A stretch of 44,563 bases of DNA from Escherichia phage vB-Eco-KMB14, in sequence record OR424384.1; one strand, written 5' to 3'. The stretch's first letter is position 1, and each line of letters opens with the position of its first letter. Shown piece by piece: positions 1 to 44,299 of this stretch. Under the pieces are notes generated by a model, which did no database searches, was not told where the DNA came from, and worked only from the letters and a program-made list of their open reading frames with translations. A program made the translations under genes and the position numbers.

Positions 1-94
1 GAGCGTTTGACAGGGTGGGCGTGGGTGGGCTATCTGTTCGTTTCGCCTAGCGGCTACACTCACTGGCTAACTTGCGCTACGTTCACTCGCTCAC

Positions 95-230
95 GTGTAC
101 CTTAGGTTGTTCCTTGATGGATAGCTTAGGTTAACCTTAGTGGACTACCTTAGTTAAAGCCTTAGTGCTTATCTTAGTAATAGCTTAGTAGTATACCTTA
201 GTAAGTCTTAGTGTCTTCTCTTAGTGATTG
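95..230. repeat. Array of about 10 short CTTAGT-type repeats (ccttagt/gcttagt/tcttagt) spaced 10-13 bp near the left genome end
   Basis: Direct reading: the motif recurs at about 100,124,137,149,160,172,183,196,205,217. Analogous to the CCTAAAG-type repeat arrays next to the terminal repeat in T7. Confidence 0.5.
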
Positions 231-421
231 CACATGCAAGCATGTAAGATGCCATTAGGTCGCGGTCGGTAGACCGCTAAAGAAAGAGAATAGTAATAAG
301 ATGCAGTAGGAGGAACACCGGAAACCTAGCCAACCTAGCCTATCCTAGCTCTGTATCTATTGCTTTTCCTTAGTCTCACATGTTAGACAACCTATCTTAT
401 TCTTAGTGATGATAACTTAGT

Positions 422-450
422 GTTGACAAGATAATCTTAGTGTAATACTA
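422..450 (+). promoter_or_regulatory. Candidate host sigma70 early promoter (TTGACA, 17 nt spacer, TACTAT)
   Basis: TTGACA at 422-427 and a -10-like hexamer at 445-450, upstream of the first early ORF; T7-like phages use host RNAP for early transcription. Confidence 0.3.
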
Positions 451-552
451 TGCATCACGTAGGCGGTGCTGAGGCACCTAGTAGCCAGCTAGTAAGGCAT
501 ACGAAGAGACTAGCGCTTACATTGCTCTTTAACAATTTGCTTAGTGTAACCT

Positions 553-774
553 ATGTATGCCGTGGTTAATTACTTATTGAATGAGGGATTAACTATGACA
601 TTAAACAACCGTGAACTATCCGTTCTCTTTACCCTGTTGTGCTACATGATTCGTAACAACGAATTGCTTACAGATGACGAGTTGGCACTGTATCGTCGCT
701 TTCTTAACGAAGGTTGGACAGATACAGTTAATCAATACCGTAACATGATAGATGAGTTGAGGGAGGGTAAATAA
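553..774 (+). CDS. Hypothetical early protein (73 aa; alternative start at 595 with GAGGG Shine-Dalgarno gives 59 aa)
   Basis: ORF in the early region; the internal ATG at 595 is preceded by tgagggatt. Confidence 0.5.
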   Translation: MYAVVNYLLNEGLTMTLNNRELSVLFTLLCYMIRNNELLTDDELALYRRFLNEGWTDTVNQYRNMIDELREGK

Positions 775-998
775 TGTATCAACATGAGGTGTTCTTTGAA
801 TCAGCTAGCGAAGCTATTCGCTTCCGTGATGATATGATGCAAGCTGGTGTAGGCGTTGATGTGTATCACTATTTGATAGATTACGACACTGAATATCACC
901 GAGTTACCTTAGTATCTGAGTATGACAACCAAGTCATTACTGAGTATCTAGGTAGTGAAGATTATGATTACGATGAAGTAATCACGACAAATCTCTAA
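774..998 (+). CDS. Hypothetical early protein (74 aa)
   Basis: ORF with strong RBS ggaggg 8 nt upstream; start overlaps the previous stop (taATG). Confidence 0.55.
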   Translation: MYQHEVFFESASEAIRFRDDMMQAGVGVDVYHYLIDYDTEYHRVTLVSEYDNQVITEYLGSEDYDYDEVITTNL

Positions 999-1006
999 AT
1001 TAACTG

Positions 1007-1035
1007 TTGACAGCCACGGCATACAAGGTTACATT
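1007..1035 (+). promoter_or_regulatory. Candidate host sigma70 promoter (TTGACA, 17 nt spacer, TACATT)
   Basis: TTGACA at 1007-1012 and TACATT at 1030-1035, in an intergenic region. Confidence 0.3.
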
Positions 1036-1127
1036 AAGCATCAAGACGGCGACGTCTTTAAACATCCCGCTCTTTAACAATACGGTTTGTGTCTTGATAG
1101 GCTAACTAACTAACTAAGGTAATTATC

Positions 1128-1238
1128 ATGAAAGGTTTAATTTGTGTAGAACGTATGGTCAATGGTAAACTTGAAATATTACCACTGGAAAACCAATCTA
1201 GCTTCAAAGAGTGGTATGGCTGTTTCTCACTGATTTAA
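1128..1238 (+). CDS. Small hypothetical early protein (36 aa), not in the ORF track
   Basis: ATG at 1128 preceded by the ctaactaactaactaagg leader; translates MKGLICVERMVNGKLEILPLENQSSFKEWYGCFSLI. Confidence 0.35.
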   Translation: MKGLICVERMVNGKLEILPLENQSSFKEWYGCFSLI

Positions 1239-1388
1239 GGTAAAGGCTGGCACTAGTCAGCCTATCAAGGCGCAAACCAAGCTCTTTAACAATTTGGATA
1301 AAGCTTCTTAGTCTGGATAGGTTAAACCTAGGAGATTCTCTTGAGTCTCCTATAATGTAACCTAACTAACTAAATGAGGATTAATAAC

Positions 1389-1745
1389 ATGGCTATGTCT
1401 AATATGACTTACTCTCAGGTTTACAACACCGCTCATGCTGCATTAGTTGAACGTATCTGGAATGATGACATTGATTGTATCGATAACGCACATGATGCAA
1501 TCCATGAGGTAGCGGACAGTGCTGTACCAATCTATTATGCTGACATCTTCTCAGTGATGGCGAGTGAAGGTATTGATCACTTCTTCGAAGACTCCGGCCT
1601 GATGCCAGATACTAAGGATGTAACTGTCGTACTACAAGCCCGTATTTATGAACAACTAACCATTGATTTATGGGAACGTGTTCAAGATATGATTGTTGCG
1701 TACACCAATTACGCTGAGGATTCAGAAGAAGAAGAGGAAGAATAA
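1389..1745 (+). CDS. ocr: Ocr-like anti-restriction DNA-mimic protein (T7 gp0.3 homolog), 118 aa, poly-Glu C-terminus
   Basis: Translation MAMSNMTY...DAIH...[32 protein letters not shown]...[15 protein letters not shown] matches T7 Ocr nearly block for block. ATG at 1389 follows RBS gagg; the ORF-track start at 1374 is an N-terminal extension. Confidence 0.9.
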
Positions 1746-1746
1746 G

Positions 1747-1860
1747 ATGGAAAAGCTATACAACTTCATCTTTTCAGACGGTGTAACCCTGAAGTGTTCC
1801 CTGCGTTTCGCACAAATTCGTGAGGAAGTACTAGGCACTACATACAAACTATTTAGCTGA
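1747..1860 (+). CDS. Small hypothetical protein (37 aa)
   Basis: ATG 2 nt after the ocr stop, with AGGAAG upstream; in the position of T7 gene 0.4 but with no recognisable similarity. Confidence 0.3.
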   Translation: MEKLYNFIFSDGVTLKCSLRFAQIREEVLGTTYKLFS

Positions 1861-1871
1861 CACTATAAGAG
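1851..1871 (+). promoter_or_regulatory. Phage-RNAP promoter-like variant (ATTTAGCTGACACTATAAGAG)
   Basis: Matches the genome promoter consensus except around +1 (TATAAG instead of TATAGAAG). Confidence 0.3.
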
Positions 1872-1936
1872 AAGGCTTAACAAGGCGTTGCTACGGTAGC
1901 GCCTGATTAAACTTTCACTTACTAGGAGTTGAGATT

Positions 1937-2122
1937 ATGAAAACCTTGATTGGATGCTTCTTGTTGGCTTCTCTTGCTCTGGCATTTACCGCTAAAGCTG
2001 GTTATGACGCTTATAAAGTAGAACAAGCCCAGCAAGACTGGGCCAAAAAGTTCAACTTGTGCAGCAAGAGCAACACCTACGAGTACTGCAACAAAACACT
2101 AAGACACTTATGGAAAGAGTAA
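1937..2122 (+). CDS. Small secreted early protein with N-terminal signal peptide (61 aa)
   Basis: RBS aggag; N-terminus MKTLIGCFLLASLALAFTAKA is a typical Sec signal with an AKA cleavage motif; the mature part has two Cys. Confidence 0.6.
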   Translation: MKTLIGCFLLASLALAFTAKAGYDAYKVEQAQQDWAKKFNLCSKSNTYEYCNKTLRHLWKE

Positions 2123-2185
2123 CTAGCCTATAGCCTACCTGAGTGGGCTATGTGATATTTACTTACACTATATAAGGTGACTATT

Positions 2186-3109
2186 ATGACTACTGAAAAC
2201 ATCCTCCTGTCTGTCCGTGAAGCTGCAACCGCTGAGATTAAGCAGCACTTAGACAATATCGGCACTTCTTACATCAAAGTTGGCGCTTGTCTGAATGAAT
2301 TACGCGGTGATTTCGAAGGTCAAAAAGACTTTTTAGCTTATGTAGAATCAGAGTTCGGCATCAAGAAGGCACAATGCTACAAGCTGATGAGTGTAGCCCG
2401 TGTCTTTGAAGGAGACGAACGCTTTAAAGGTGTGGCTATGCGTGTAATGCTGGCGCTTGTTCCTTTCGCTGATGAAAATATAATCATGGAGAAGGCCGCA
2501 GAACTCGCCGCAGCTGGCAAGCTGGACACTAATGCCGTAAATGCCCTGATTGATCCTAAGAAAGAGACAAAGGCCGAGACGGTACAATCTAAGGCTGAGA
2601 CAGTAAAACCGCAGGAGAACGCGACTGAGGCCGCAGAAACTATGCAAGGACATGCAACCTTTGAGGATTTCATCTTAGAGAAGGCGAAGGAGGAGTTACA
2701 AAGTGTGCCGCCAGTAAGTGAGTCGGGTAACGACGAATCCGCACCGTGGGAAGATGAAAGCAAGCCGGAAGGCACAAAGGCAGCACCGCTGGATAACACG
2801 GCTAATACCGAAAACGCCGCTATTGCTGGTCTGCTGGCACAAATTAAAGCACTGACCGAGCAATTACAGGCAGCTAATGACCGCATTGCCTCCTTAAGCA
2901 GCGCACGCGAAAGCAAGAAAGCAGCCGCGCCTATGCTGCCGCAATTCAAATCTTCCTGCTTCTATGCTCGCTTAGGTTTAAGCGCTGAGGAGGCAACGAA
3001 GAAAACAGCAGTTAACAAGGCACGCCGCGAACTGGTTAAGCTAGGCTACGGCGAAGGCCATGAAGCATGGCCCTTAATCTCTGAGGCAGTAGAAGAATTA
3101 ACTAAGTAA
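2186..3109 (+). CDS. Hypothetical early protein (307 aa), unknown function, acidic/Ala-rich central region
   Basis: Long ORF immediately upstream of the RNAP gene. ATG at 2186 follows aagg; the ORF-track start at 2177 is GTG. Confidence 0.7.
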   Translation: MTTENILLSVREAATAEIKQHLDNIGTSYIKVGACLNELRGDFEGQKDFLAYVESEFGIKKAQCYKLMSVARVFEGDERFKGVAMRVMLALVPFADENIIMEKAAELAAAGKLDTNAVNALIDPKKETKAETVQSKAETVKPQENATEAAETMQGHATFEDFILEKAKEELQSVPPVSESGNDESAPWEDESKPEGTKAAPLDNTANTENAAIAGLLAQIKALTEQLQAANDRIASLSSARESKKAAAPMLPQFKSSCFYARLGLSAEEATKKTAVNKARRELVKLGYGEGHEAWPLISEAVEELTK

Positions 3110-3172
3110 CCTTATCGGTGGCATCTTCTTAGGTGTCACCTATTAAGGTTTCTTTCACTAGGAGTAAACAAG

Positions 3173-5800
3173 ATGCAAGACCTACACGCTATTCAACTTC
3201 AACTTGAAGAAGAAATGTTTAACGGAGGTATCCGTCGCTTTGAAGCGGACCAACAACGCCAGATTGCATCCGGTAATGAATCCGACACGGCATGGAATCG
3301 CCGCTTATTGTCTGAGTTAATCGCGCCAATGGCTGAAGGCATTCAGGCATACAAGGAAGAGTATGAAGGTAAAAGAGGCCGTGCACCGCGTGCATTAGCT
3401 TTCATTAACTGCGTAGAAAACGAAGTGGCAGCATATATCACGATGAAAATCGTTATGGATATGCTGAACACGGATGTAACCTTGCAGGCTATAGCCATGA
3501 ATGTAGCTGACCGCATTGAGGACCAAGTACGTTTTAGCAAGCTGGAAGGTCACGCCGCCAAATACTTTGAGAAAGTTAAGAAGTCACTTAAGGCAAGTAA
3601 GACTAAATCATATCGCCATGCGCACAACGTAGCGGTCGTGGCTGAGAAGTCAGTAGCTGACCGTGACGCTGATTTCTCTCGCTGGGAGGCGTGGCCTAAA
3701 GATACCTTGCTACAAATCGGTATGACCTTGCTAGAAATACTGGAAAATAGTGTATTCTTCAATGGTCAGCCTGTCTTTCTTCGCACCTTGCGCACTAATG
3801 GTGGCAAGCATGGCGTTTACTACTTACAGACTAGCGAACACGTGGGTGAATGGATAACTGCATTTAAAGAGCACGTAGCTCAGCTGAGTCCAGCCTATGC
3901 GCCTTGCGTTATTCCTCCTCGTCCGTGGGTTTCTCCGTTTAATGGTGGCTTCCATACCGAGAAAGTGGCGAGTCGTATTCGTCTGGTTAAAGGAAACCGC
4001 GAGCACGTCCGCAAGCTGACCAAAAAGCAAATGCCAGCGGTTTACAAGGCTGTTAACGCTTTGCAGGCGACTAAGTGGCAGGTTAATAAAGAGGTTTTGC
4101 AGGTAGTAGAGGACGTTATCCGTCTCGACCTTGGTTATGGTGTGCCTTCCTTTAAACCGCTCATCGACCGTGAGAACAAGCCAGCTAATCCAGTGCCGTT
4201 AGAGTTCCAGCACCTGCGAGGCCGTGAACTTAAAGAGATGCTAACGCCGGAACAATGGCAAGCCTTCATCAACTGGAAAGGCGAATGTACCAAGCTGTAT
4301 ACCGCTGAAACTAAGCGCGGCAGCAAGTCGGCGGCAACCGTTCGTATGGTCGGGCAGGCCCGTAAATACAGCCAGTTTGACGCAATATACTTCGTGTATG
4401 CACTGGATAGCCGCTCACGCGTTTATGCGCAATCTAGCACACTCTCACCGCAATCAAATGACTTAGGCAAGGCTTTACTACGCTTTACCGAAGGGCAGAC
4501 CATAAACAGCACTGAGGCGCTTAAGTGGTTTTTGGTGAACGGGGCAAATAACTGGGGCTGGGATAAGAAAACTTTTGACGTGCGTACCGCTAACGTGCTG
4601 GATGGCGAATTTCAAGACATGTGCCGCGACATTGCAGCCGACCCGCTGACCTTCACTCAATGGGTAAATGCTGATTCCCCTTATGGCTTCCTTGCATGGT
4701 GCTTTGAATATGCGCGTTATCTGGATGCACTGGACGAAGGAACGCAAGACCAATTCATGACGCACCTACCCGTCCATCAAGATGGTAGTTGCTCTGGTAT
4801 CCAGCACTATAGCGCGATGTTACGCGATGAGGTAGGTGCGAAAGCAGTAAACCTTAAGCCTTCTGACTCCCCTCAAGATATTTATGGCGCGGTTGCGCAG
4901 GTTGTTATCCAGAAGAATTACGCCTACATGAATGCAGACGATGCAGTGACTTTCACATCCGGAAGCGTCACACTTACAGGTGCAGAACTGCGTAGCATGG
5001 CTAGTGCGTGGGATATGATAGGAATCACTCGCGGCCTGACCAAAAAGCCCGTAATGACACTACCTTATGGCAGCACACGTCTAACCTGCCGTGAGTCAGT
5101 GATTGATTATATCGTTGATTTAGAAGAAAAAGAGGCCCAACGAGCTATTGCGGAAGGGCGTACCGCCAATCCTGTACATCCTTTTGATAATGACCGTAAG
5201 GACAGCCTGACACCTGGCGCAGCTTATAACTATATGACAGCTTTAATCTGGCCTTCTATTTCGGAAGTGGTTAAAGCTCCTATAGTGGCAATGAAAATGA
5301 TTCGTCAGCTTGCCCGTTTCGCAGCTAAAAGGAATGAAGGCTTAGAGTATACCTTGCCTACTGGCTTCATCTTGCAACAAAAGATTATGGCTACTGATAT
5401 GCTCCGCGTATCCACTTGCCTGATGGGAGAAATCAAGATGAGTCTACAGATTGAAACGGACGTAGTGGATGAAACGGCTATGATGGGCGCTGCTGCTCCT
5501 AACTTTGTGCATGGTCATGATGCCAGTCACCTTATCTTAACAGTCTGCGACCTTGTTGATAAAGGGATTACATCTATCGCAGTCATTCATGATTCTTTCG
5601 GTACTCACGCAGGCCGTACAGCCGATCTTCGTGATAGCTTAAGGGCAGAAATGGTGAAGATGTATCAAGGCCGTAATGCCCTGCAAAGCCTGTTAGATGA
5701 GCATGAAGAACGCTGGTTAGTAGACACCGGAATCCAAGTGCCAGAGCAAGGAGAGTTTGACCTTAACGAAATCTTAGTATCTGACTATTGCTTCGCATAA
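3173..5800 (+). CDS. T7-like single-subunit DNA-dependent RNA polymerase (875 aa)
   Basis: Size and motifs typical of T7 RNAP (HDSFGT motif C, PYGS region, C-terminal ...FA); RBS ctaggag. Confidence 0.95.
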
Positions 5801-5808
5801 TATTAATA

Positions 5809-5839
5809 GGCCATTCCTTCGGGAGTGGCCTTTTCTTTT
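5809..5839 (+). terminator. Rho-independent terminator after the RNAP gene (9-bp stem, UUCG tetraloop, T-run)
   Basis: ggccattcc-ttcg-ggagtggcc followed by ttttctttt. Confidence 0.55.
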
Positions 5840-5891
5840 ACCTACTACCGGTAACATTTCATTAACATAAAGTGTCTCACATGTGAGACTT

Positions 5892-5911
5892 ATTTACCGG
5901 ACACTATAGGA
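5892..5911 (+). promoter_or_regulatory. Phage-RNAP promoter (ATTTACCGGACACTATAGGA)
   Basis: Consensus match; first of a twin pair downstream of the RNAP gene. Confidence 0.5.
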
Positions 5912-6072
5912 TAGCCGTCGGAGACGGGAAAGAAAGGGAAGATAAAGGATATAAAGGAAGTAATAGGTATTAAAGGTTATATAGGTTATCTAGGAATACC
6001 TATTACCTTCTTCTTTCCTCTTATTACCACTTAGAGGAAGGGCAGAGCTAGGTTGTCTCACATGTGAGACTT

Positions 6073-6093
6073 ATTTACCGGACAGTATAGATA
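6073..6093 (+). promoter_or_regulatory. Phage-RNAP promoter variant (ATTTACCGGACAGTATAGATA)
   Basis: One substitution in the conserved core (CAGTATAG); second of the twin pair. Confidence 0.35.
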
Positions 6094-6120
6094 AGACTAA
6101 CTTACTTTGGAGATTTAACC

Positions 6121-6249
6121 ATGCGTAACTTTGAGAAGATGACCCGTAAAGCTAACCGTTTTGACATGGAAGAAGGGCAGAAGAAAGGCAAGAAGCTGAA
6201 TAAACCTGTCCGTGACCGTGCATCTAAACGCGCTGCGTGGGAGTTCTAA
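6121..6249 (+). CDS. gp1.1-like small basic protein (42 aa), not in the ORF track
   Basis: Translation MRNFEKMTRKANRFDMEEGQKKGKKLNKPVRDRASKRAAWEF resembles T7 gene 1.1 in sequence, length and position; RBS ggag. Confidence 0.7.
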   Translation: MRNFEKMTRKANRFDMEEGQKKGKKLNKPVRDRASKRAAWEF

Positions 6250-6252
6250 GTT

Positions 6253-8241
6253 ATGGCTATTATTCAGAATGTACCGTGTCCTGCTTGCCAAAAGAACGGA
6301 CATGATATTACTGGCAATCATTTAATGATCTTTGACGACGGGGCAGGGTACTGTAACCGTGGTCACTTCCATGATAACGGTAAACCTTATTACCACAAGC
6401 CGGAAGGTGGCATCGAGATAACCGAGTTACCTATTACTGGCAATATCAAATATACACCTTCTCAATTCAAAGAAATGGAGAAGGAAGGGAAGATAAGCGA
6501 CCCTAAGCTACGCGCCATCGCACTTGGTGGTATGCGTATGAAAGACCGTTGGGAGGTTATGAATGAGCAAGAAAGGGCAGACCAAGAAGCAGAGTGGAAA
6601 CTTGATGTTGAATGGTTTCTCACGCTTAAGCGTAAGAACCTTGTATCCCGTCACATTCGAGGTGACATCGCAGCAATGTACGATGTGCGCGTTGGACACG
6701 ATGAAGAGGGAAGAGTCAACCGTCACTATTATCCACGATATGAAAAGGGTGTGTTTGTTGGAGCAAAATGCCGGACGTTGCCGAAGGATTTTAAGTTCGG
6801 ACACCTAGGTAAACTCTTTGGTATGCAAGACCTTTTCGGTATGAACACTTTGTCTCACGTGTTAGACAAGGGGAGACGAAAGGATTGCTTGCTTATTGTA
6901 GGCGGTGAACTTGATGCACTAGCAGCGCAGCAGATGCTCCTTGATTCTGCCAAAGGTACTAAGTGGGAAGGTCAGCCATACCATGTATGGTCTGTCAATA
7001 AAGGTGAGTCTTGCCTTGAAGAGATAGTGCAAAACCGTGAGCACATAGCCCAATTCAAGAAGATTATATGGGGCTTTGATGGCGACGAGGTGGGGCAGAA
7101 GCAGAACCAACAAGCTGCTCGCCTGTTTCCTGGCAAATCCTACATCCTCGAATATCCATCTGGTTGCAAAGATGCTAACAAGGCATTGATGGCTGGCAAG
7201 GCTAAAGAGTTTGTAGATGCATGGTTTAATGCCAAGTCATCTGATGAAGTCTTTGGTAGCCAGATTAAATCTATCGCATCTCAAAGGGATAAGCTCAAGG
7301 CTGCACGTCCAGAGCAAGGACTATCATGGCCTTGGCCTAAGCTGAACAAGGTAACGCTAGGTATTCGTAAGAACCAACTTATCATTGTAGGCGCAGGCTC
7401 TGGTGTAGGTAAGACTGAGTTCCTTCGTGAAGTAGTTAAGCACCTCATTGAAGAACACGGTGAATCTGTAGGCATCATTTCTACAGAAGACCCGATGGTC
7501 AAGGTGTCCCGTGCTTTTATCGGCAAGTGGATTGATAAGCGTATTGAGTTACCGCCAACCAACGACCCGAAAGAAGATGGATACCGTGAGGTGTTCGACT
7601 ACACCGAGGAAGAGGCTAACGCCGCCATTGATTATGTAGCTGATACAGGTAAGCTGTTTGTAGCTGACCTAGAGGGTGACTATTCGATGGAAAAGGTAGA
7701 GCAAACTTGCCTAGAGTTTGAGGCTATGGGCATTTCTAATATCATCATTGATAACTTAACGGGGATTAAATTAGATGAGCGTGCTTTTGGTGGGAAGGTT
7801 GGTGCACTTGATGAATGCGTCAAGCGGATTGGTACTATCAAAGACCGACACCCGGTTACTATATTCCTTGTATCACACCTTACACGTCCTCCGGCAAACC
7901 GTACCCAACACGAAGAAGGTGGCGAGGTTATCCTTTCTGACTTCCGAGGTTCAGGCGCTATCGGATTCTGGGCATCTTACGCCTTGGGGATTGAGCGTAA
8001 TACAAGAGCTGAAACGCTTGATGAACGGACTACCACGTACATCTCATGTGTCAAAGACCGCGACCAAGGTATCTACACTGGAACCAAGGTCATGCTTAAG
8101 GGTGACATTCAAACCGGACGTTTAATGGAACCACAAGCCCGTACTAAGTCATTTGATACAGGTGAAGCAAGGCAACAAGAAGTGCCGGATTTACCGGACA
8201 CTATAGAAGAGACAACTTTTGACGATGAACAGGAGTTTTAA
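6253..8241 (+). CDS. DNA primase/helicase (T7 gp4-like, 662 aa) with acidic C-terminal tail ending in Phe
   Basis: N-terminal Cys4 zinc ribbon (CPACQ...CNRGH), Walker A GAGSGVGKT, C-terminus ...TTFDDEQEF. Confidence 0.95.
   Translation: MAIIQNVPCPACQKNGHDITGNHLMIFDDGAGYCNRGHFHDNGKPYYHKPEGGIEITELPITGNIKYTPSQFKEMEKEGKISDPKLRAIALGGMRMKDRWEVMNEQERADQEAEWKLDVEWFLTLKRKNLVSRHIRGDIAAMYDVRVGHDEEGRVNRHYYPRYEKGVFVGAKCRTLPKDFKFGHLGKLFGMQDLFGMNTLSHVLDKGRRKDCLLIVGGELDALAAQQMLLDSAKGTKWEGQPYHVWSVNKGESCLEEIVQNREHIAQFKKIIWGFDGDEVGQKQNQQAARLFPGKSYILEYPSGCKDANKALMAGKAKEFVDAWFNAKSSDEVFGSQIKSIASQRDKLKAARPEQGLSWPWPKLNKVTLGIRKNQLIIVGAGSGVGKTEFLREVVKHLIEEHGESVGIISTEDPMVKVSRAFIGKWIDKRIELPPTNDPKEDGYREVFDYTEEEANAAIDYVADTGKLFVADLEGDYSMEKVEQTCLEFEAMGISNIIIDNLTGIKLDERAFGGKVGALDECVKRIGTIKDRHPVTIFLVSHLTRPPANRTQHEEGGEVILSDFRGSGAIGFWASYALGIERNTRAETLDERTTTYISCVKDRDQGIYTGTKVMLKGDIQTGRLMEPQARTKSFDTGEARQQEVPDLPDTIEETTFDDEQEF
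8189..8209 (+). promoter_or_regulatory. Phage-RNAP promoter embedded in the 3' end of the primase/helicase gene
   Basis: ATTTACCGGACACTATAGAAG consensus match. Confidence 0.5.
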
Positions 8242-8402
8242 TGGAAATTATTAAACCAGTATTGAATATCGGTATTGAGATCCTATTCATGCTTGTGATC
8301 GCAGATTATGCTGCACGATATGGCTTCAAGAAAGCAGTGAAACTTATCGTTGCATCTGGTTTTATGATGTCAATGTTCTTTATTGTAACACGCCTTATCT
8401 AG
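8241..8402 (+). CDS. Small hydrophobic membrane protein (53 aa), not in the ORF track
   Basis: ATG overlaps the primase stop; RBS aggag; translation MEIIKPVLNIGIEILFMLVIADYAARYGFKKAVKLIVASGFMMSMFFIVTRLI. Confidence 0.45.
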   Translation: MEIIKPVLNIGIEILFMLVIADYAARYGFKKAVKLIVASGFMMSMFFIVTRLI

Positions 8403-17986: not shown

Positions 17987-18071
17987 AAAGGGCTAGGTAA
18001 GACTTTATCGGCTGGCGTATCCAAATGATATTGCACTAGCCCTTGATTGTATAGTGAATGGAGGATTCAAT

Positions 18072-18575
18072 ATGTCACACTATGAATGTAAGAAGTGTCA
18101 TAAGCGTTATGATTACTGTACTTGTGGTCAAGAGAAAACATCTTTTAAAGTTGGAGACAAGGTATTTCGTAATGAAAAAGATTCGATTCCTTGGAATCAA
18201 TACTGCAAAGAAGCTGGTATTGACCCTGATAGCCCTGTAACCATAGATGATATTGATGGCATTAACTTGTGCTTTCGTGAGGTGAGGGGTACAGGTTGGG
18301 ATTCCAAAAAATTCAAACTTGCATCTGATAAGTTAGACAACAATATGGTAACTCAGCCTAAGCACTACGAGTTCTTTGATGGCGTAGAAGCAATTACTAT
18401 CATCGCCCGTAGTATGACCGAGAAGCAATTCGCGGGGTATTGCATGGGTAATGCTTTGAAGTATCGTCTGCGTGCAGGTAAGAAGTTCAATACTGAAGAA
18501 GACCTGAAGAAAGCAGACTACTACAAAGAGTTATTCCAGAAGCATCGTCACGAATGTATTGATGAGGATATTTAA
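18072..18575 (+). CDS. Hypothetical protein with N-terminal zinc ribbon (CKKC...CTC), 167 aa
   Basis: ATG at 18072 follows RBS ggagg; the C-terminal region GYCMGNALKYRLRAGKK is a conserved phage-domain-like segment. Confidence 0.6.
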   Translation: MSHYECKKCHKRYDYCTCGQEKTSFKVGDKVFRNEKDSIPWNQYCKEAGIDPDSPVTIDDIDGINLCFREVRGTGWDSKKFKLASDKLDNNMVTQPKHYEFFDGVEAITIIARSMTEKQFAGYCMGNALKYRLRAGKKFNTEEDLKKADYYKELFQKHRHECIDEDI

Positions 18576-18576
18576 T

Positions 18577-18750
18577 ATGGAAGGTAAACTGTATAGAGGG
18601 TACTTCGGTAACTTATATAAAGTAAGCTCTCGCGGTTTTGTATTGACCTCTGATGATGAAGGTGCAATGTGGCACCTAAGTGCATATGGTTCTAACTTAG
18701 CACACTTTAAAGAGGCAATAGTCAAAGGTGTGATGAAGGAGGTGAAATGA
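18577..18750 (+). CDS. Small hypothetical protein (57 aa)
   Basis: ATG at 18577 follows gaggat. Confidence 0.45.
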   Translation: MEGKLYRGYFGNLYKVSSRGFVLTSDDEGAMWHLSAYGSNLAHFKEAIVKGVMKEVK

Positions 18751-19694
18751 ACATCTTCCAATTCCTAGGTCTTCCAGAAGACCACCGCAATCATCCATTC
18801 ATGCTGGTGAAGCATCGCGGTGAAGTTCCTGAGAAGAAACTTACTTTTCCATGTTATGCACAGGTGAAACGAGATGGAATATTCAGTGCTGTTGTGGTGC
18901 GCAATGATGGTGCTGTTGCCGTCTTTGGTCGTACTGGTAAGAAGCTCGCAAATGTTGAAGCCTTGGAAAAGACATTTAGTGTATTTCCTGTCGGGTTGTA
19001 TCTTGGTGAGTTGCAATCTATGGCTGTTGATGTTTATCTTGAAGCTCTGTCAGGAGTGGTAAACCCTAATCGTACAGAGCCACTTGACTTCATAGGCCAG
19101 CAGATTAAAGACAACCTGTATATCGACTTCTTCGATATGTTAACTATTAAGGCATTCCATGATGGATTCACTGATGTTTCTTATCTCAAACGTTACGATG
19201 CTTTACATCGTCGTATCGGCACTCATCTTAGCGGGTGCAACGCTATCCTTCCTATCACTCCTTGCCATAATGAGCGAGAAGTTGAAGCGTTTGCGCAAGA
19301 GCAAATAGATGCAGGACGTGAGGGTGCTGTATTCAAACTGGACTGCGATTATGAAGCAGGACACAAAGGTTATCGTCAGACTAAAGAAGTCCGTAAGGTA
19401 ACTTATGACCTTACTTGTATTGGCTTTGAAGAAGGTAAAGGTAAATACAAAGGTAAGGTAGCTAACCTCATTTTCAAGTGGAAAGGGGGCAAGACAATCA
19501 AAGCTATGCTCGGTAAAGGGTGGACTCATGCAGATGCAGAACAGATGTTCCACGATATTAAACATGGCGGACGGTTGAATGTCATTGGTAAAATCTTTGA
19601 AGTCAAAGGTCTTCAGGATTCAAGCAAGGGCAACATTCGTCTGCCCAAAGCGGGAGAATTAAGACATGACAAAGATGAACCAGATTTCTTTTGA
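18747..19694 (+). CDS. ATP-dependent DNA ligase (315 aa)
   Basis: KxDG adenylation motif (AQVKRDGIF); strong RBS aaggaggtg; start overlaps the upstream stop. Confidence 0.85.
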   Translation: MNIFQFLGLPEDHRNHPFMLVKHRGEVPEKKLTFPCYAQVKRDGIFSAVVVRNDGAVAVFGRTGKKLANVEALEKTFSVFPVGLYLGELQSMAVDVYLEALSGVVNPNRTEPLDFIGQQIKDNLYIDFFDMLTIKAFHDGFTDVSYLKRYDALHRRIGTHLSGCNAILPITPCHNEREVEAFAQEQIDAGREGAVFKLDCDYEAGHKGYRQTKEVRKVTYDLTCIGFEEGKGKYKGKVANLIFKWKGGKTIKAMLGKGWTHADAEQMFHDIKHGGRLNVIGKIFEVKGLQDSSKGNIRLPKAGELRHDKDEPDFF

Positions 19695-36131: not shown

Positions 36132-38029
36132 TGGCTAAGGCAAGAGAATCACAAGCGGAGGCTCTTGCCAGATGGGAGATGCTACAGGAGTTACAGCAGG
36201 CCTTTCCTTACACAGCGGAAGGTTTGCTTCTCTTTGCAGATACAGTTATTCATAACTTAATTGCAGGCAACCCTCATCTGATTCGTATGCAGGCGGATAT
36301 CTTGAAGTTCCTATTTTACGGACACAAGTACCGCCTCATCGAAGCGCCTCGTGGTATCGCTAAGACAACACTATCAGCAATCTATACGGTATTCCGTATT
36401 ATTCATGAACCGCATAAGCGTATCATGGTTGTGTCCCAAAACGCCAAGCGAGCAGAGGAAATCGCAGGTTGGGTAGTTAAAATCTTCCGTGGCTTAGACT
36501 TTCTTGAGTTTATGCTGCCGGATATCTACGCTGGGGACCGTGCATCCGTTAAGGCGTTTGAGATTCATTACACCCTACGTGGTAGTGATAAGTCTCCTTC
36601 TGTATCCTGTTACTCAATCGAAGCAGGTATGCAGGGTGCTCGTGCTGATATTATTCTAGCGGATGACGTAGAGTCGATGCAGAATGCTCGTACGGCAGCG
36701 GGCCGTGCCTTGCTTGAGGAACTGACTAAGGAGTTTGAATCTATCAACCAGTTTGGGGATATCATTTACCTTGGTACACCTCAGAACGTAAACTCTATCT
36801 ACAACAACCTACCTGCTCGTGGTTACTCTGTTCGTATCTGGACTGCGCGTTACCCTTCAGTAGAGCAAGAGCAATGTTATGGCGACTTCCTTGCACCTAT
36901 GATTGTTCAAGATATGAAGGACAACCCAGCACTTCGCTCAGGGTACGGGTTGGATGGTAATAGTGGTGCACCTTGTGCCCCTGAAATGTATGATGATGAA
37001 GTCCTGATTGAGAAGGAAATCTCTCAGGGTGCTGCTAAGTTCCAGCTTCAGTTCATGCTTAACACTCGCATGATGGATGCTGACAGATACCCATTACGCC
37101 TGAACAATCTAATCTTCACCTCGTTTGGTACAGAGGAAGTCCCTGTGATGCCTACGTGGAGTAATGATTCCATAAACATCATTGGTGATGCACCTAAGTA
37201 TGGTAACAAGCCTACGGATTTCATGTACAGACCTGTAGCTCGCCCATACGAATGGGGTGCTGTCTCCCGCAAGATTATGTATATTGACCCTGCGGGTGGT
37301 GGTAAGAACGGAGATGAGACGGGTGTAGCCATCGTATTCCTGCACGGCACATTCATTTATGTGTATCAGTGCTTTGGTGTACCTGGCGGATACCGAGAGT
37401 CGTCCCTGAATCGCATTGTGCAGGCCGCAAAGCAGGCGGGTGTTAAAGAGGTATTCATTGAGAAGAACTTTGGTCATGGCGCGTTTGAGGCGGTAATTAA
37501 GCCGTACTTTGAACGAGAGTGGCCTGTAACTCTGGAAGAGGATTACGCCACCGGACAGAAAGAATTGCGTATCATTGAGACGCTGGAGCCGCTCATGGCA
37601 GCCCATAGGCTTATCTTCAATGCAGAGATGGTGAAGTCAGACTTTGAGTCGGTACAGCACTATCCGCTTGAACTACGCATGTCCTACAGTCTTTTCAATC
37701 AAATGTCGAACATAACGATTGAGAAGAACAGCCTCCGGCACGATGACCGCCTAGACGCCCTGTATGGCGCTATACGGCAATTAACTTCTCAGATAGACTA
37801 TGACGAGGTTACACGGATTAATCGCCTCAGAGCGCAGGAGATGCGAGATTACATCCATGCTATGAACACACCTCATCTACGCAGGGCAATGCTATATGGG
37901 GATTACGGTACTGAGCGAAGAGTGACCAACACTTCCGTAGCGATGCAGCAGCGAGTTTACGGGCAGAACTACCGAAATAAATCGGCAAGCAGAAATACAC
38001 TTTCTGCAAGGATTTCAAGGACTTATTAA
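36128..38029 (+). CDS. Terminase large subunit (633 aa)
   Basis: Walker A-like PRGIAKTT; size and position as T7 gp19; RBS aaggagg. Confidence 0.9.
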   Translation: MMAKARESQAEALARWEMLQELQQAFPYTAEGLLLFADTVIHNLIAGNPHLIRMQADILKFLFYGHKYRLIEAPRGIAKTTLSAIYTVFRIIHEPHKRIMVVSQNAKRAEEIAGWVVKIFRGLDFLEFMLPDIYAGDRASVKAFEIHYTLRGSDKSPSVSCYSIEAGMQGARADIILADDVESMQNARTAAGRALLEELTKEFESINQFGDIIYLGTPQNVNSIYNNLPARGYSVRIWTARYPSVEQEQCYGDFLAPMIVQDMKDNPALRSGYGLDGNSGAPCAPEMYDDEVLIEKEISQGAAKFQLQFMLNTRMMDADRYPLRLNNLIFTSFGTEEVPVMPTWSNDSINIIGDAPKYGNKPTDFMYRPVARPYEWGAVSRKIMYIDPAGGGKNGDETGVAIVFLHGTFIYVYQCFGVPGGYRESSLNRIVQAAKQAGVKEVFIEKNFGHGAFEAVIKPYFEREWPVTLEEDYATGQKELRIIETLEPLMAAHRLIFNAEMVKSDFESVQHYPLELRMSYSLFNQMSNITIEKNSLRHDDRLDALYGAIRQLTSQIDYDEVTRINRLRAQEMRDYIHAMNTPHLRRAMLYGDYGTERRVTNTSVAMQQRVYGQNYRNKSASRNTLSARISRTY

Positions 38030-38048
38030 TTACTGGACACTATAGAAG
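38028..38048 (+). promoter_or_regulatory. Phage-RNAP promoter after the terminase gene
   Basis: AATTACTGGACACTATAGAAG; its first 24 transcribed nt resemble the leader of the 12891 promoter. Confidence 0.7.
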
Positions 38049-38186
38049 GAAGGCCCAGATAATAAGAGAAAATAATAGGTAATATATAGGTTAACCTAGG
38101 TTATATAGATATGCCTTAGTATGGGTGTACTCCTGTACACCCTATTCATTACTACCTTACTATATTTACATAATAGGAGAGAGACA

Positions 38187-38465
38187 ATGGCTAATGATTA
38201 TAGTAGTCAACCATTAACAGGTAAGTCTAAGAGAAAGCAGGTACAACCTGTAAGTGAAGAACTAATGCTTCCGGTAATCAAAAAAGAGGAAGCTAGTAAG
38301 AAAAGCAATGTCATTAATGATGCCACCAAATCAGGTAAACAGAAAGGGGCCATGGTGTGCCTTGAAGTGGAAGGTGGTGTATTGAAGATTGCTATCGCGG
38401 TTGATGGCAAAGAAGATTCAGAGTGGAAGTTAGTAACAGTGGAACCAGCTGTTAACCCAGTTTAA
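38187..38465 (+). CDS. Small hypothetical protein, paralog 1 (92 aa)
   Basis: ATG at 38187 follows RBS aggaga; shares the SGKQKGAMVxLE block with the next ORF. Confidence 0.6.
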   Translation: MANDYSSQPLTGKSKRKQVQPVSEELMLPVIKKEEASKKSNVINDATKSGKQKGAMVCLEVEGGVLKIAIAVDGKEDSEWKLVTVEPAVNPV

Positions 38466-38483
38466 GATAAGGAGGAAGATTAC

Positions 38484-38777
38484 ATGGCTAAATATGGTAC
38501 TACAGGTTCTGTTACTGGTCAGGCTTTTCGAGTAAAAGCAGTACAAACTATTGCAACGGCAATCCCTATGCCTGTTGTTAAAGAAGCAGACCTTAAGAGT
38601 AAAGATCACCCTATCAACATCAAACACCTGTCAGGTAAGCAGAAAGGTGCAATGGTTGCTCTTGAGAAAGATGACACAACCATGCATATTGCTGTTGCAC
38701 GTGGCAGTGAACCAACAGACCCATGGGATGTAACTGGTATGGAAGGGGCAGCTGTCACTCCAGCAGGTGGAGAATAA
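38484..38777 (+). CDS. Small hypothetical protein, paralog 2 (97 aa)
   Basis: RBS aaggagg; shared block HLSGKQKGAMVALEKDD...IAVA. Confidence 0.65.
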   Translation: MAKYGTTGSVTGQAFRVKAVQTIATAIPMPVVKEADLKSKDHPINIKHLSGKQKGAMVALEKDDTTMHIAVARGSEPTDPWDVTGMEGAAVTPAGGE

Positions 38778-39121
38778 TGCTTAACAAATACTTCAAGCGC
38801 CGTGAGTTCGCTTGCCGTTGTGGGTGCGGTACATCCACTGTTGATGCTGAATTACTACAGGTAGTCACAGATGTGCGTGAGCACTTTGGCTCTCCTGTAG
38901 TTATCACTTCGGGGCATCGCTGTGCTAAGCACAATGCTAATGTAGGAGGAGCTAAGAACTCCATGCATCTTACTGGTAAGGCTGCTGACATTAAGGTGTC
39001 TGGTGTTGGCCCAATGGAGGTACGTGCATACCTCTGCAATAAATACCATGATAAGTACGGTATTGGTGCTTATCCTACTTTTACCCATATCGACGTTAGA
39101 GATAACAAAGCCAGATGGTAA
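38777..39121 (+). CDS. Endolysin, zinc peptidase M15 (L-Ala-D-Glu peptidase / D-Ala-D-Ala carboxypeptidase-like), 114 aa
   Basis: SGHRC...HN...S.H.TGKAAD signature of M15 peptidases; ATG at 38777 overlaps the upstream stop. Confidence 0.75.
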   Translation: MLNKYFKRREFACRCGCGTSTVDAELLQVVTDVREHFGSPVVITSGHRCAKHNANVGGAKNSMHLTGKAADIKVSGVGPMEVRAYLCNKYHDKYGIGAYPTFTHIDVRDNKARW

Positions 39122-39229
39122 GATGCATTGAATGGTGTGAACGCATGGTTGCTAAGGCTTCAGAGGAAGGTAACTATGAAGATTGGCAGAACTACTCAAC
39201 TTTATTAGCACAATGGAAAGGGAGGTGCA

Positions 39230-39379
39230 ATGAAAAAGCTGTTCAAATCTAAGAAGGTTGTAGGTGCACTAGTTGCATTGGCAATTGCTCTTGTTTCTGT
39301 AGGTCTTGGTGTAGACCTTGGCTCTGGCACGGAATCCTCTGTGACAGATGTGGTCTGCCAAGTGATCACCTGTGAATAA
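39230..39379 (+). CDS. Small membrane protein (49 aa), not in the ORF track; lysis-associated candidate
   Basis: Strong RBS gggagg; N-terminus MKKLFKSKKVVGALVALAIALVSVGLGV. Confidence 0.45.
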   Translation: MKKLFKSKKVVGALVALAIALVSVGLGVDLGSGTESSVTDVVCQVITCE

Positions 39380-39593
39380 GTTTCTAGAAGTTCTGGCAGG
39401 TCTTATTGGCCTGCTTGTCTCTGCTAAGAAGAAACAAGAAGAGAAGGAGGCACAAAGTGAAGCGAATCATGTTAGTGACAACCCTTCTGATTGGTTCGCT
39501 GACCACTTCCGGGTGTCAGCAGGCGTTACCAGAGAAAGCAATGGTGAAACCTCTGAGGCCGACGCTGACGGAAGTTTACGAGGTAGACGATAA
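39372..39593 (+). CDS. Possible i-spanin-like protein (73 aa, GTG start, N-terminal TM)
   Basis: N-terminal hydrophobic segment FLEVLAGLIGLLVSA; contains the lipoprotein ORF in another frame. Shorter than typical Rz proteins. Confidence 0.3.
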   Translation: MNKFLEVLAGLIGLLVSAKKKQEEKEAQSEANHVSDNPSDWFADHFRVSAGVTRESNGETSEADADGSLRGRR

Positions 39594-39666
39594 GGTCTGC
39601 TTTAGTAAGCCTGACGCTACAAAATTAGGTTTGTATATTCTTTCGCTGGAACGCGGATATAATTAA
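39457..39666 (+). CDS. Putative o-spanin lipoprotein (Rz1-like), 69 aa from GTG
   Basis: Perfect AGGAGG 6 nt before GTG 39457; signal MKRIMLVTTLLIGSLTTSGC with a lipobox-like TSGC; Pro-rich mature region. Confidence 0.5.
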   Translation: MKRIMLVTTLLIGSLTTSGCQQALPEKAMVKPLRPTLTEVYEVDDKVCFSKPDATKLGLYILSLERGYN

Positions 39667-39695
39667 TACATAGCTTTATGTATCAGTGTCTTACG

Positions 39696-39716
39696 ATTTA
39701 CTGGACACTATAGAAG
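39696..39716 (+). promoter_or_regulatory. Phage-RNAP promoter upstream of the tailspike genes
   Basis: Exact consensus ATTTACTGGACACTATAGAAG. Confidence 0.7.
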
Positions 39717-39797
39717 AGATAAGATAGCGCCGTTCTTTTGAGCGGCCTATTACTAGCCAATCTTCATAGGGAGGGTTGGAAAGTAATAGGAGATAGC

Positions 39798-41696: not shown

Positions 41697-41703
41697 GCGA
41701 CAG

Positions 41704-41726
41704 GCAGTGCGTAAGCACTGCTTTTC
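41704..41726 (+). terminator. Possible weak terminator hairpin between the two tailspike genes
   Basis: gcagtgc-gtaa-gcactgc followed by ttttc. Confidence 0.3.
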
Positions 41727-41781
41727 ACGCAACTTTTCTTAAAGGTTATCATGGTGGTAGCCTTTCAGAAAAGGAGGTTAC

Positions 41782-44092: not shown

Positions 44093-44162
44093 GCAGGTTA
44101 ATATCTTAGTATAAACAAGGGCAGACTTAGGTTTGTCCTTAGTGTATTCCAAAGGAGGTAAC

Positions 44163-44291: not shown

Positions 44292-44299
44292 CCAAAGTC

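Follow-up and report, generated by a model that had tools for sequence, protein, structure and literature searches.

Escherichia phage vB-Eco-KMB14 has a standard Vectrevirus early region in which ocr appears to be an exchangeable gene

The window, meaning the whole 44,563-nt stretch of Escherichia phage vB-Eco-KMB14 (OR424384.1) that was analysed, is best read, with a probability of about 0.9, as a complete Vectrevirus genome of the K1-5/K1E-like kind (SP6 supergroup, Molineuxvirinae), in which positions 1389–6249 are its standard early region and ocr alone is exchangeable. A first-pass annotation had correctly recognised an Ocr homologue at 1389–1745 and a gp1.1-like peptide 3' of the RNAP gene, and had proposed that the early and replication blocks were exchanged as modules between T7-like and SP6-like phages. 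Of that mosaicism, the part that stands concerns the ocr ORF, which alone is incongruent and looks like a swapped cassette; block exchange does not stand, as the gene order is typical of SP6-like phages and the replication genes are SP6-like. The early arrangement with Ocr and gp1.1 is already known, and homologues are annotated in RefSeq for SP6, K1-5, and K1E-like phages. As originally framed, the finding matters little; the replacement of ocr is a by-product of modest interest.

Placement of the genome and order of its early genes

At the DNA level, positions 1–8400 are 94–96% identical to the Vectrevirus phages LI10P5, EC120, and AAPEc6 and 94% identical to K1-5, with 92–98% of bases covered. 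Positions 38000–44563 are 91–98% identical to Vectrevirus and K1-5 relatives within the covered parts (61–70%), and no relative covers the second tailspike region in full. The window starts at the position of K1-5 nucleotide 203, near the left terminal repeat. Nearly all genes encode proteins with 63–93% identity to SP6; gene order matches that of SP6, and the window is collinear with SP6 and K1-5 gene by gene.

The RNAP (3173–5800, +) is a single-subunit enzyme of the SP6/K1-5 type with 86% identity to SP6, 32% to T7, and 99% to K1-5. The primase/helicase (6253–8241, +; 91% to SP6 gp10, 25% to T7 gp4) lies directly 3' of gene 1.1, an order shared with SP6 and K1-5. Together with DNAP, these proteins are 86–91% identical to SP6 and 25–35% identical to T7, which argues that no T7 block was imported. 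T7-type early and replication genes are absent, and this, with the low RNAP identity to T7, places the window outside both the T7-like phages (Studiervirinae) and T7/SP6 block hybrids. In the RNAP tree the window falls inside the Molineuxvirinae (100% bootstrap), and the subfamilies are split with 100% bootstrap.

The gene order is of the SP6 type, with tailspikes 3' of the terminase gene, an adaptor protein, and the ligase gene late in the DNA-metabolism block. Both tailspikes downstream of the terminase carry S74 chaperones, and a 401-aa capsid protein is encoded. Phage promoters were sought with ATTTACTGGACACTATAGAAG, which matches 11 sites with three or fewer mismatches against 0 expected.

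Is the early region unusual among SP6-like phages? In SP6 the order is ocr (gp5), gp6, gp7, RNAP (gp8), gp1.1 (gp9), and primase/helicase (gp10), and the ligase homologue gp25 is found at 18.0 kb; K1-5 and mutPK1A2 have the same early order. The succession of ocr, a protein of about 300 aa, and RNAP occurs in eight other Molineuxvirinae: SP6, K1-5, mutPK1A2, GRNsp51, SE29, Premi, F5M1D, and IME184. The last five of these eight are two Zindervirus, one Proteus Acadevirus, and two Klebsiella Molineuxvirinae, and among them the primase/helicase comes next in the four whose examined stretch reaches past RNAP. A gp1.1-sized or gp1.1-homologous ORF follows RNAP in five of the eight comparison phages. 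Small ORFs vary at three places: ahead of ocr, between ocr and the ~300-aa protein, and in the interval from gp1.1 to the primase.

The first-pass annotation had described the genome well in its SP6-like promoters, family-A polymerase, capsid protein, and tailspikes after the terminase, and also in the primase/helicase (6253) directly following gene 1.1 (ending at 6249) with the ligase far downstream at 18747. It had held that an early complement and order shared across SP6-like phages would make the arrangement typical rather than mosaic, and the core order shared by eight Molineuxvirinae settles the matter in that sense. As for the per-gene phylogenies it had called for, the RNAP tree gives a member of the Molineuxvirinae and no hybrid, while the Ocr tree is incongruent and mixes the subfamilies.

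Several early and replication genes have counterparts in SP6 but no match in T7. The 310-aa early protein (2177–3109, +) belongs to the SP6 gp7/K1-5 gp6 family (63% to SP6 gp7; PHROG 4571, E=6e-130) and has no T7 or Pfam match; its gene fills the slot before RNAP that gene 0.7 holds in T7. The products of orf553, orf1747, and orf2177 are 63–76% identical to SP6 proteins and have no T7 homologue, and those of orf774 and orf1937 match neither T7 nor SP6 proteins. A 37-aa ORF after ocr (1747–1860, +; PHROG 11746, E=1.5e-29) has homologues directly 3' of ocr in K1-5, SP6, GRNsp51, Premi, F5M1D, IME184, and SE29, regardless of the ocr allele. It was considered as part of an ocr cassette and rejected, being conserved in all Molineuxvirinae examined and unrelated to the post-ocr ORFs of Studiervirinae. 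The ATP-dependent DNA ligase (18747–19694, +; Pfam PF01068 and PF14743) is 81% identical to SP6 gp25 (SP6 18004–18951) and has no BLAST match to T7 gp1.3.

When 52 T7 proteins were searched, 11 had homologues in the window, eight of them at 25–37% identity; T7 genes 0.4–0.7, 1.2–1.6, 2, 2.5, 3, 3.5, and 6 had no match. Set against this core range, there are three T7-similar outliers, namely Ocr (66–71%), gp1.1 (56%), and the C-terminus of gp1.7 (64% over 73 aa). The last is found in a gp1.7-like protein (18054–18575, +) with a C-terminal DUF3310 domain (Pfam, E=7.6e-25), annotated as "nucleotide kinase" in SP6 and K1-5. The gene 1.1 homologue (6121–6249, +) encodes a 42-aa basic peptide rich in K and R that matches the full PF08200 (Phage_1_1) profile (E=8.2e-16, 58.6 bits, cutoff 21). 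Its identity is 98% to K1-5 and 74% to SP6 gp9, and it falls stepwise with lineage, from 93–100% in Vectrevirus through 74–79% in Zindervirus and Klebsiella phages and 60–63% in Proteus phages to 53–56% in T7-like phages. This graded series suggests vertical descent of gp1.1. Horizontal transfer of gp1.1 was rejected on the same grounds, with the proviso that a peptide of 42 aa may have been transferred anciently.

Could a T7-type early module, from ocr to gene 1.1, have been joined with rearranged replication genes to an SP6-type late region? Such a junction would fit the fact that Ocr and gp1.1 are far closer to T7 than the core genes are, and also a DNA-metabolism gene order unlike that of T7. 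Since the SP6 and K1-5 genome papers of 2004, the T7 and SP6 groups have reportedly been known to differ in this order. However, the genes that separate and flank ocr and gene 1.1 (orf553, orf774, orf1747, orf1937, and orf2177) lack T7 homologues, RNAP and primase/helicase are SP6-like, the same core order runs throughout the Molineuxvirinae examined, with the ligase position matching in SP6 and K1-5, and divergence from K1-5 is limited to the ocr ORF. Per-gene tblastn in both directions and the synteny in eight other Molineuxvirinae led to the rejection of a block-level hybrid, and an origin of this kind is very improbable. Ocr and gp1.1 are part of what the T7 supergroup as a whole inherited: the two genes hold corresponding positions in the two subfamilies, and finding them in this genome is nothing unusual.

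The ocr gene and its two alleles in Vectrevirus

The ocr gene (1389–1745, +) encodes a 118-aa DNA-mimic anti-restriction protein of the T7/SP6-type allele, with the N-terminus MAMSNMTY as in T7 Ocr. It lies about 1.4 kb from the window start, near the leading genome end and upstream of the RNAP gene. The protein matches Pfam PF08684 (E=3.5e-43, 146.6 bits, cutoff 25; profile positions 1–100 of 101) and PHROG 2568, "ocr-like anti-restriction" (E=9e-49). In a phmmer search against PDB, residues 1–117 align end to end and gap-free to residues 1–117 of T7 Ocr (1S7Z_A, E=1.7e-41). Identity to T7 reaches 71% over 100 aa, and that to SP6 Ocr is 61–66%. The 118 residues include 27 D+E and 4 K+R, against 34 and 6 in T7 Ocr. 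Acidic residues are strongly conserved among Ocr homologues in published alignments (PMC4872106), and Ocr was described in a 2026 paper as conserved among Vectrevirus (PMC13005862).

K1-5 is nearly identical to the window in its early region but carries another ocr. In 60-nt sliding comparisons, DNA identity is 42–70% within positions 1377–1736 and rises to 95–100% in the bins that flank this segment left and right. The left border of this replacement lies within 5 nt of the ATG at 1389, just 3' of a shared RBS, and the right one falls within the poly-Glu tail GAAGAAGAGGAAGAATAA. K1-5 Ocr is 83–85% identical to that of the Kayfunavirus phages K1F and KE14, against 49–53% to the window Ocr. Thus, two ocr alleles of about 50% identity coexist in Vectrevirus: a T7/SP6-type allele, present in the window, EC120, AAPEc6, 6949, and LI10P5, and a K1F-type allele, present in K1-5, mutPK1A2, and phage vB_EcoP_B. 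Alleles with at least 90% identity to that of the window occur in 45 GenBank phage records and the K1-5-type allele in 24; the window-type Ocr is also encoded on six IMG/VR contigs, all with a Vectrevirus RNAP. The ocr ORF is the only mosaic element and acts like a single-gene cassette exchanged by recombination from the conserved leader/RBS to the poly-Glu tail.

The sharp boundaries of the divergence from K1-5 raise the question of an assembly or chimera artefact, for which nothing specific speaks. The ORF is intact, its flanks are continuous, and independent isolates exclude it, since the GenBank records and IMG/VR contigs mentioned all carry this allele in that context; the probability left to an artefact is negligible.

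From where did the window-type allele come? No donor is visible in GenBank phages or IMG/VR, where Ocr identities leave a gap from about 73% to 89%. A recent acquisition from a T7-like donor was rejected, because identities of at least 90% occur in Vectrevirus only, the next being about 72–73% or less, and because the four-fold sites are saturated (38% identity between window and T7, n=24). The missing donor and the saturation point to old shared ancestry, or old transfer plus constraint, as the source of the T7 likeness, and not to a recent event.

Incongruent histories of ocr and RNAP

That the early genes of the T7 group are mosaic is well known in general. In the Ocr tree, which covers 16 genomes out of about 570 Ocr-bearing phage records (neighbour-joining on about 105 columns, bootstrapped), the two subfamilies are intermixed at 97–100% bootstrap, and the grouping is largely by host genus. 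The Klebsiella phages F5M1D (Molineuxvirinae) and KN1-1 (Studiervirinae) pair with 88% identity and 100 bootstrap, the Salmonella phages SE29 (Molineuxvirinae) and STP-SP4 (Studiervirinae) with 92% and 100, and Premi (Molineuxvirinae) and MP2 (Studiervirinae), from Proteus and Morganella, with a bootstrap of 99. Cross-subfamily ocr pairs share 84–87% of nucleotides, and their RNAPs are about 35% identical. At four-fold sites, two of these cross-subfamily pairs agree at 64–68% in ocr against 24–40% for cross-subfamily RNAP, on small samples of 14–36 codons. Conversely, SP6 and SE29 have RNAPs that are 93% identical and Ocr proteins that are 49% identical, and for K1F and STP-SP4 the values are 98% and 63%. 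On one T7-like IMG/VR contig, whose RNAP is 99% identical to that of T7, the Ocr is of the K1F type. These comparisons indicate that ocr alone was replaced, as a single-gene cassette, among members of this genus as well as across the divide separating T7-like from SP6-like subfamilies.

Purely vertical descent of Ocr from an ancestor of the T7 supergroup would attribute the similarity to T7 to purifying selection on the DNA-mimic surface. It would account for ocr lying ahead of RNAP at the leading genome end in the two subfamilies alike, and it agrees with the reported conservation of acidic residues (PMC4872106) and with the saturated four-fold sites between window and T7, which speak against recent transfer of this allele. 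It is hard to reconcile with window and K1-5 genomes that are 92–99% identical yet differ in Ocr across sharp borders, with the near-identical RNAPs and divergent Ocr proteins of SP6/SE29 and K1F/STP-SP4, with the nucleotide and four-fold identities of the cross-subfamily pairs, or with the strongly supported incongruent clades. Retention of paralogues would be a further route to such patterns, and no second ocr copy was found in any genome examined. Little credence is therefore given to descent without horizontal transfer.

A broader reading is moderately favoured, in which ocr is a host-tracking, freely exchanged cassette across enterobacterial Autographiviridae whose swaps have the RBS and the poly-Glu tail as recombination points, the class of SE29, STP-SP4, and IME184 is chimeric, and the driver would be matching to the type I R-M and BREX repertoire of the host or escape from defences that sense Ocr, such as PARIS. 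A limited literature search found no paper describing a host-tracking pattern of ocr exchange. Sharing of alleles by host was seen for Klebsiella, Salmonella, E. coli K1, and Proteus/Morganella phages. At least one Ocr class, that of SE29, STP-SP4, and IME184, resembles an intragenic chimera with a K1F-type N-terminus and a T7-type C-terminus.

On this evidence, anti-defence genes such as ocr are exchanged while the phage backbone stays in place, and they seem to track the host. Two Vectrevirus isolates may be almost the same and still carry different anti-restriction alleles, which is relevant to choosing or engineering therapeutic phages specific for K1/K5 capsules. The natural pairs of ocr alleles could be used to test the specificity of Ocr toward type I R-M, BREX, and Ocr-triggered systems.

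The spacer, the early programme, and known systems

Two candidate host sigma-70 promoters lie upstream of ocr, at 423–451 (+; TTGACA-17-TACTAT) and 1007–1035 (+; TTGACA-17-TACATT), each with 10 of 12 consensus matches; in a consensus scan, the number of such sites in the region is no higher than in shuffles. Directly 3' of the RNAP stop, a terminator-like hairpin with a T-run (5808–5838, +; a 10-bp stem with six GC pairs and the tail TTTTCTTTT) is probably the end of the host-transcribed early unit, and the SP6 RNAP gene is trailed by the same element.

The intergenic region between RNAP and gene 1.1 is 320 nt long. It contains the 16-bp palindrome GTCTCACATGTGAGAC followed by TT and the phage promoter ATTTACCGGACACTATAGGAT (5874–5912, +; promoter 5892–5912). 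A second palindrome copy with TT and the promoter-like ATTTACCGGACAGTATAGATA, in which a core C is changed to G (6055–6093, +; promoter-like part 6073–6093), lies 28 nt upstream of gene 1.1 and is a direct repeat of 5873–5909. Between the copies lies a long imperfect hairpin in a purine- and AT-rich spacer (5954–6012, +), with an RNA folding z of -1.55 that is not significant alone. SP6 has an equivalent inter-promoter hairpin (z=-1.77), values of about -1.6 to -1.8 being suggestive only.

By analogy with T7, the following programme may be inferred. Host RNA polymerase would read from the leading end through the small ORFs, ocr, the 37-aa ORF, a 61-aa ORF, the 310-aa protein gene, and the phage RNAP gene, and would halt at the hairpin terminator. 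Ocr, as an acidic dimeric DNA mimic, would sequester type I R-M enzymes, and probably also the BREX methyltransferase, while the remainder of the genome has yet to enter. The phage RNAP would then fire from the two tandem promoter copies in the spacer, and this transcription would express gene 1.1, the primase/helicase, and the other DNA-metabolism genes.

How does this region compare with known phages? In T7, the stretch from gene 1 to gene 1.1 holds the promoters phi1.1A and phi1.1B at the matching site and in the same layout, and its gp1.1 is also a 42-aa peptide encoded 3' of RNAP and two tandem phage promoters. Between the two T7 promoters lie the R1.1 RNase III site and the primary origin; the window hairpin at 5954–6012 is in the matching position. 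The rest of the T7 genome is only distantly related, and its ligase gene is located elsewhere. T7 Ocr (PDB 1S7Z) and the window Ocr have in common the N-terminus, the conserved core, and the poly-acidic tail, but T7 Ocr has seven more acidic residues and the C-terminal helix of the window Ocr is different, which means that the range of its targets may not be the same.

SP6 (Zindervirus) has genes 5–10 in the order of the window and its ligase near 18 kb, but its DNA is only 68–78% identical, and its Ocr is nearer to that of T7 (76–78%) than to that of the window. The SP6 spacer shows the same layout of terminator, palindrome-promoter, hairpin, and palindrome-promoter, with the palindrome GTCCAACGTGTTGGAC in place of GTCTCACATGTGAGAC. 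In K1-5 and its close relatives, the spacer upstream of gene 1.1 holds the tandem palindrome-promoter repeats seen in the window; with its syntenic early region and nearly identical RNAP and gp1.1, K1-5 differs in the ocr allele.

The genome and its T7-similar genes

All large ORFs of the 44.6-kb window lie on the + strand, and gene-by-gene tblastn pairs nearly every ORF with a collinear SP6 gene at 63-93% identity (RNAP 86%, primase/helicase 91%, DNAP 90%, capsid 93%, ligase homologue 81%). The first 8.4 kb show 94-96% DNA identity to many Vectrevirus genomes, including LI10P5, EC120, AAPEc6, 6949 and K1-5; 40 deposited records span at least 80% of this stretch. The phage promoter consensus ATTTACTGGACACTATAGAAG is matched at 11 sites against 0 expected. 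On the strength of this DNA identity, the SP6 collinearity and the promoter sites, the phage is classed as a K1-5/K1E-like member of the SP6 supergroup (Molineuxvirinae). The record is a complete, slightly permuted genome, because it starts at K1-5 nucleotide 203 and has a terminal-repeat-like sequence near its end. By megablast, the nearest Vectrevirus records cover only 61-70% of 38000-44563, and therefore some part there is not common to the closest Vectrevirus records. This region contains two tailspike ORFs (39738-41696 and 41782-43965). The second tailspike, at 727 aa, is shorter than the 811-aa K1-5 endosialidase and combines a pectate-lyase-like N-terminal region with an S74 intramolecular chaperone; it may also differ in capsule specificity.

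How much of T7 is present in such a genome? The first-pass annotation had called T7-type Ocr and gp1.1 and had proposed a modular exchange of the early and replication blocks. The Ocr call was correct: the ORF at 1389-1745 (118 aa, first residues MAMSNMTY, 27 acidic versus 4 basic residues) matches Pfam 'ocr' (E=3.5e-43) and PHROG 'ocr-like anti-restriction' (E=9e-49), and aligns end to end with the T7 Ocr crystal structure 1S7Z (E=1.7e-41). The gp1.1-like call also holds for a 42-aa basic peptide (6121-6249; Pfam Phage_1_1, E=8e-16) found 3' of the RNAP gene past a 320-nt spacer and followed directly by the primase/helicase gene. According to one paper, co-expression of T7 Ocr and gp1.1 shut off host protein synthesis (PMC7064336). 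In the record of Enterobacter phage E-4, a frameshift splits ocr into two CDS (5501-5865), both mis-annotated as 'protein kinase', a label that ocr carries in several other records too.

Only 11 of the 52 T7 proteins searched have a match in the window. Eight of these are the supergroup core (RNAP, primase/helicase, DNAP, portal, tail tube B, gp16, holin, terminase) at 25-37% identity to T7, as against three T7-similar outliers: Ocr (66% over its full length, 71% over 100 aa), gp1.1 (56%) and the C-terminal DUF3310 domain of a gp1.7-like protein (64%). None of T7 genes 0.4-0.7 and 1.2-1.6 was found in this search. Since the outliers are single, well-conserved genes and those T7 genes are absent, the presence of a T7 'early block' was rejected. 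The gp1.7-like gene (18054-18575) lies just 5' of the ligase gene (18747-19694, with both ATP-dependent ligase domains), and both are placed elsewhere than in T7. gp1.1 looks vertically inherited, because its tblastn identity to the window steps down along the phage lineage: 93-100% in Vectrevirus, 74-79% in Zindervirus and Klebsiella relatives, 60-63% in Proteus Acadevirus and 53-56% in T7-like phages.

Early gene order in SP6-like phages

The idea of block exchange fails because the core gene order is common to SP6-like phages. The SP6 RefSeq order is gp5 ('ocr-like anti-restriction'), gp6, gp7 (295 aa), gp8 RNAP, gp9 ('other names: gp1.1') and gp10 primase/helicase, an early order shared by K1-5 and mutPK1A2. 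The order from ocr through RNAP also recurs in Zindervirus GRNsp51 and SE29, Proteus Acadevirus Premi, and Klebsiella Molineuxvirinae F5M1D and IME184. The primase/helicase gene comes next in four of these five (GRNsp51, SE29, Premi and F5M1D), all with sequence beyond RNAP; the IME184 stretch compared ends about 130 nt past the RNAP gene. gp1.1 after RNAP was confirmed by sequence in SP6, K1-5 and mutPK1A2, the slot holds a 42-aa ORF in GRNsp51 and Premi, and gp1.1 matches were found in Proteus phages; in this tally SE29 is without a gp1.1 annotation, and the F5M1D ORF in the slot was left out of the comparison. Small ORFs near the landmark genes are variable, with two extra ORFs ahead of primase in Premi and F5M1D. 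The far-downstream ligase, which had been taken as a sign of exchange, has a counterpart in SP6, where its homologue gp25 is found at 18.0 kb. Judged by gene order, the early arrangement is typical for an SP6-like phage, the outcome that the first-pass annotation had itself named as refuting its mosaic reading.

The finding as first noted is thus already known as well as typical, given the RefSeq annotation, a published statement on Ocr and earlier gene-order reports. That the T7 and SP6 groups order their DNA-metabolism genes differently was reportedly described in 2004, together with the genomes of SP6 and K1-5. RefSeq already annotates Ocr and gp1.1, with their positions, in SP6-like phages, and a 2026 paper expressly terms Ocr conserved among Vectrevirus (PMC13005862).

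Exchange of ocr alleles

Once block exchange fails, a narrower and moderately interesting pattern remains, the exchange of ocr itself. The Ocr proteins of K1-5 and mutPK1A2 are 49-53% identical to that of the window and 83-85% identical to those of Kayfunavirus K1F and KE14. In 60-nt bins, window and K1-5 DNA are 95-100% identical up to 1376 and from 1737 on, versus 42-70% between. The left border of divergence lies no more than 5 nt from the ATG, just 3' of a shared Shine-Dalgarno region, and the right border falls in a GAA-rich poly-Glu tail common to all alleles. Window-type ocr is found at 90% or more in 45 records and the K1-5 type in 24. Directly after ocr, a 37-aa ORF (MEKLYNFIFSDGVTLKCSLRFAQIREEVLGTTYKLFS; 1747-1860) is kept in every Molineuxvirinae phage examined, the Proteus phage included, and was not found in the Studiervirinae examined; this flanking ORF is read as not part of the swap. 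Judged by eye, it is more conserved than Ocr. Just 3' of it, in the host-transcribed early region, is a phage-promoter-like site (ATTTAGCTGACACTATAAGAG; 1851-1871) with 3 mismatches to the SP6 consensus. Further on, the 310-aa early protein (ORF 2177-3109) has an indel-rich, low-complexity middle segment (2632-2751), with 28-63% identity to K1-5 and a 39-nt gap against 87-100% in the flanks.

Trees of 16 genomes show how far the exchange extends. The neighbour-joining RNAP tree splits Molineuxvirinae from Studiervirinae at 100% bootstrap (cross-identity 31-36%), whereas the Ocr tree interleaves them. Here, Molineuxvirinae F5M1D pairs with Studiervirinae KN1-1 (Klebsiella; Ocr 88%, bootstrap 100), SE29 with STP-SP4 (Salmonella; 92%, bootstrap 100) and Premi with MP2 (Proteus/Morganella; 48%, bootstrap 99). 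The K1-5 type lies inside the K1F/Przondovirus clade, and the window type groups with T7, E-4, SP6 and GRNsp51 (bootstrap 78). Alleles are swapped inside genera too, as in SP6/SE29 (RNAP 93%, Ocr 49%) and K1F/STP-SP4 (RNAP 98%, Ocr 63%). A 38.9-kb IMG/VR contig has an RNAP 99% identical to that of T7 and a K1F-type Ocr (80% to K1F, 59% to T7); therefore, ocr replacement occurs within Teseptimavirus-like phages too. By these comparisons, ocr moves as a single-gene cassette, both inside each of the two subfamilies and from one to the other, and it tends to follow host genus. A limited literature search did not find the cassette/host-genus pattern described. A third allele class (SE29 2033-2383, STP-SP4 637-1020, IME184 6001-6348) combines a K1F-type N-terminal half (MERNANAYY...HEIFTVMAADGID) with a T7-type C-terminal helix (...EYLE), which suggests an intragenic chimera recombined within the conserved core.

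Is the allele of the window itself a recent arrival? For the two closest cross-subfamily ocr pairs, the transfers are comparatively recent, since four-fold-degenerate sites are 64-68% identical, versus 24-40% in cross-subfamily RNAP. For the window, recent acquisition was rejected: four-fold sites are saturated between its ocr and that of T7 (38%, n=24), and no donor was found among GenBank phages and IMG/VR, where identity is at least 90% in Vectrevirus backbones only and then at most 72%. The T7 likeness of this Ocr is thus attributed, on sequence grounds, to old common origin and constraint, not to a recent event.

Layout of the RNAP-to-gene 1.1 spacer

A strong hairpin with a T-run (5808-5838) follows the RNAP stop codon, and two direct repeats (5874-5912 and 6055-6093) each consist of a 16-bp palindrome and a promoter. 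The perfect palindrome GTCTCACATGTGAGAC occurs in the window in 8 copies at up to 2 mismatches, versus 0.15 expected (16 nt each, at 373, 5874, 6055, 6852, 8420, 9564, 14746 and 31327). All are intergenic except 6852, which is within the primase/helicase gene, and two end 2 nt 5' of the tandem promoters ahead of gene 1.1. K1-5 and mutPK1A2 keep GTCTCACATGTGAGAC at the same places. The SP6 spacer has the same layout but a different palindrome at the equivalent site, GTCCAACGTGTTGGAC; therefore the symmetry is kept and not the sequence. The palindrome may act as a protein operator, form an RNA 3' hairpin or mark a pause site.

On the T7 model, host RNA polymerase would transcribe from the leading end past ocr and the RNAP gene, halting at 5808-5838. 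Ocr dimers, mimics of bent B-DNA, would soak up type I R-M enzymes, probably together with BREX PglX, while unmodified target sites are still outside the cell. From the tandem promoters, the phage RNAP would next transcribe gene 1.1 together with the replication genes. The sigma-70-like candidate sites at 423-451 and 1007-1035 are consensus matches only, with no enrichment over shuffles.

Between the promoter copies, a purine/AT-rich segment contains a long imperfect hairpin (5954-6012; fold z only about -1.6), with an equivalent in SP6 at about 6163-6232 (fold z only about -1.8). In the T7 record, phi1.1A and phi1.1B are found at the equivalent place. The R1.1 RNase III site and primary replication origin of T7 lie between these two promoters, and the position of the hairpin recalls them. 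The layout of the spacer argues for shared ancestry with T7 over an imported block.
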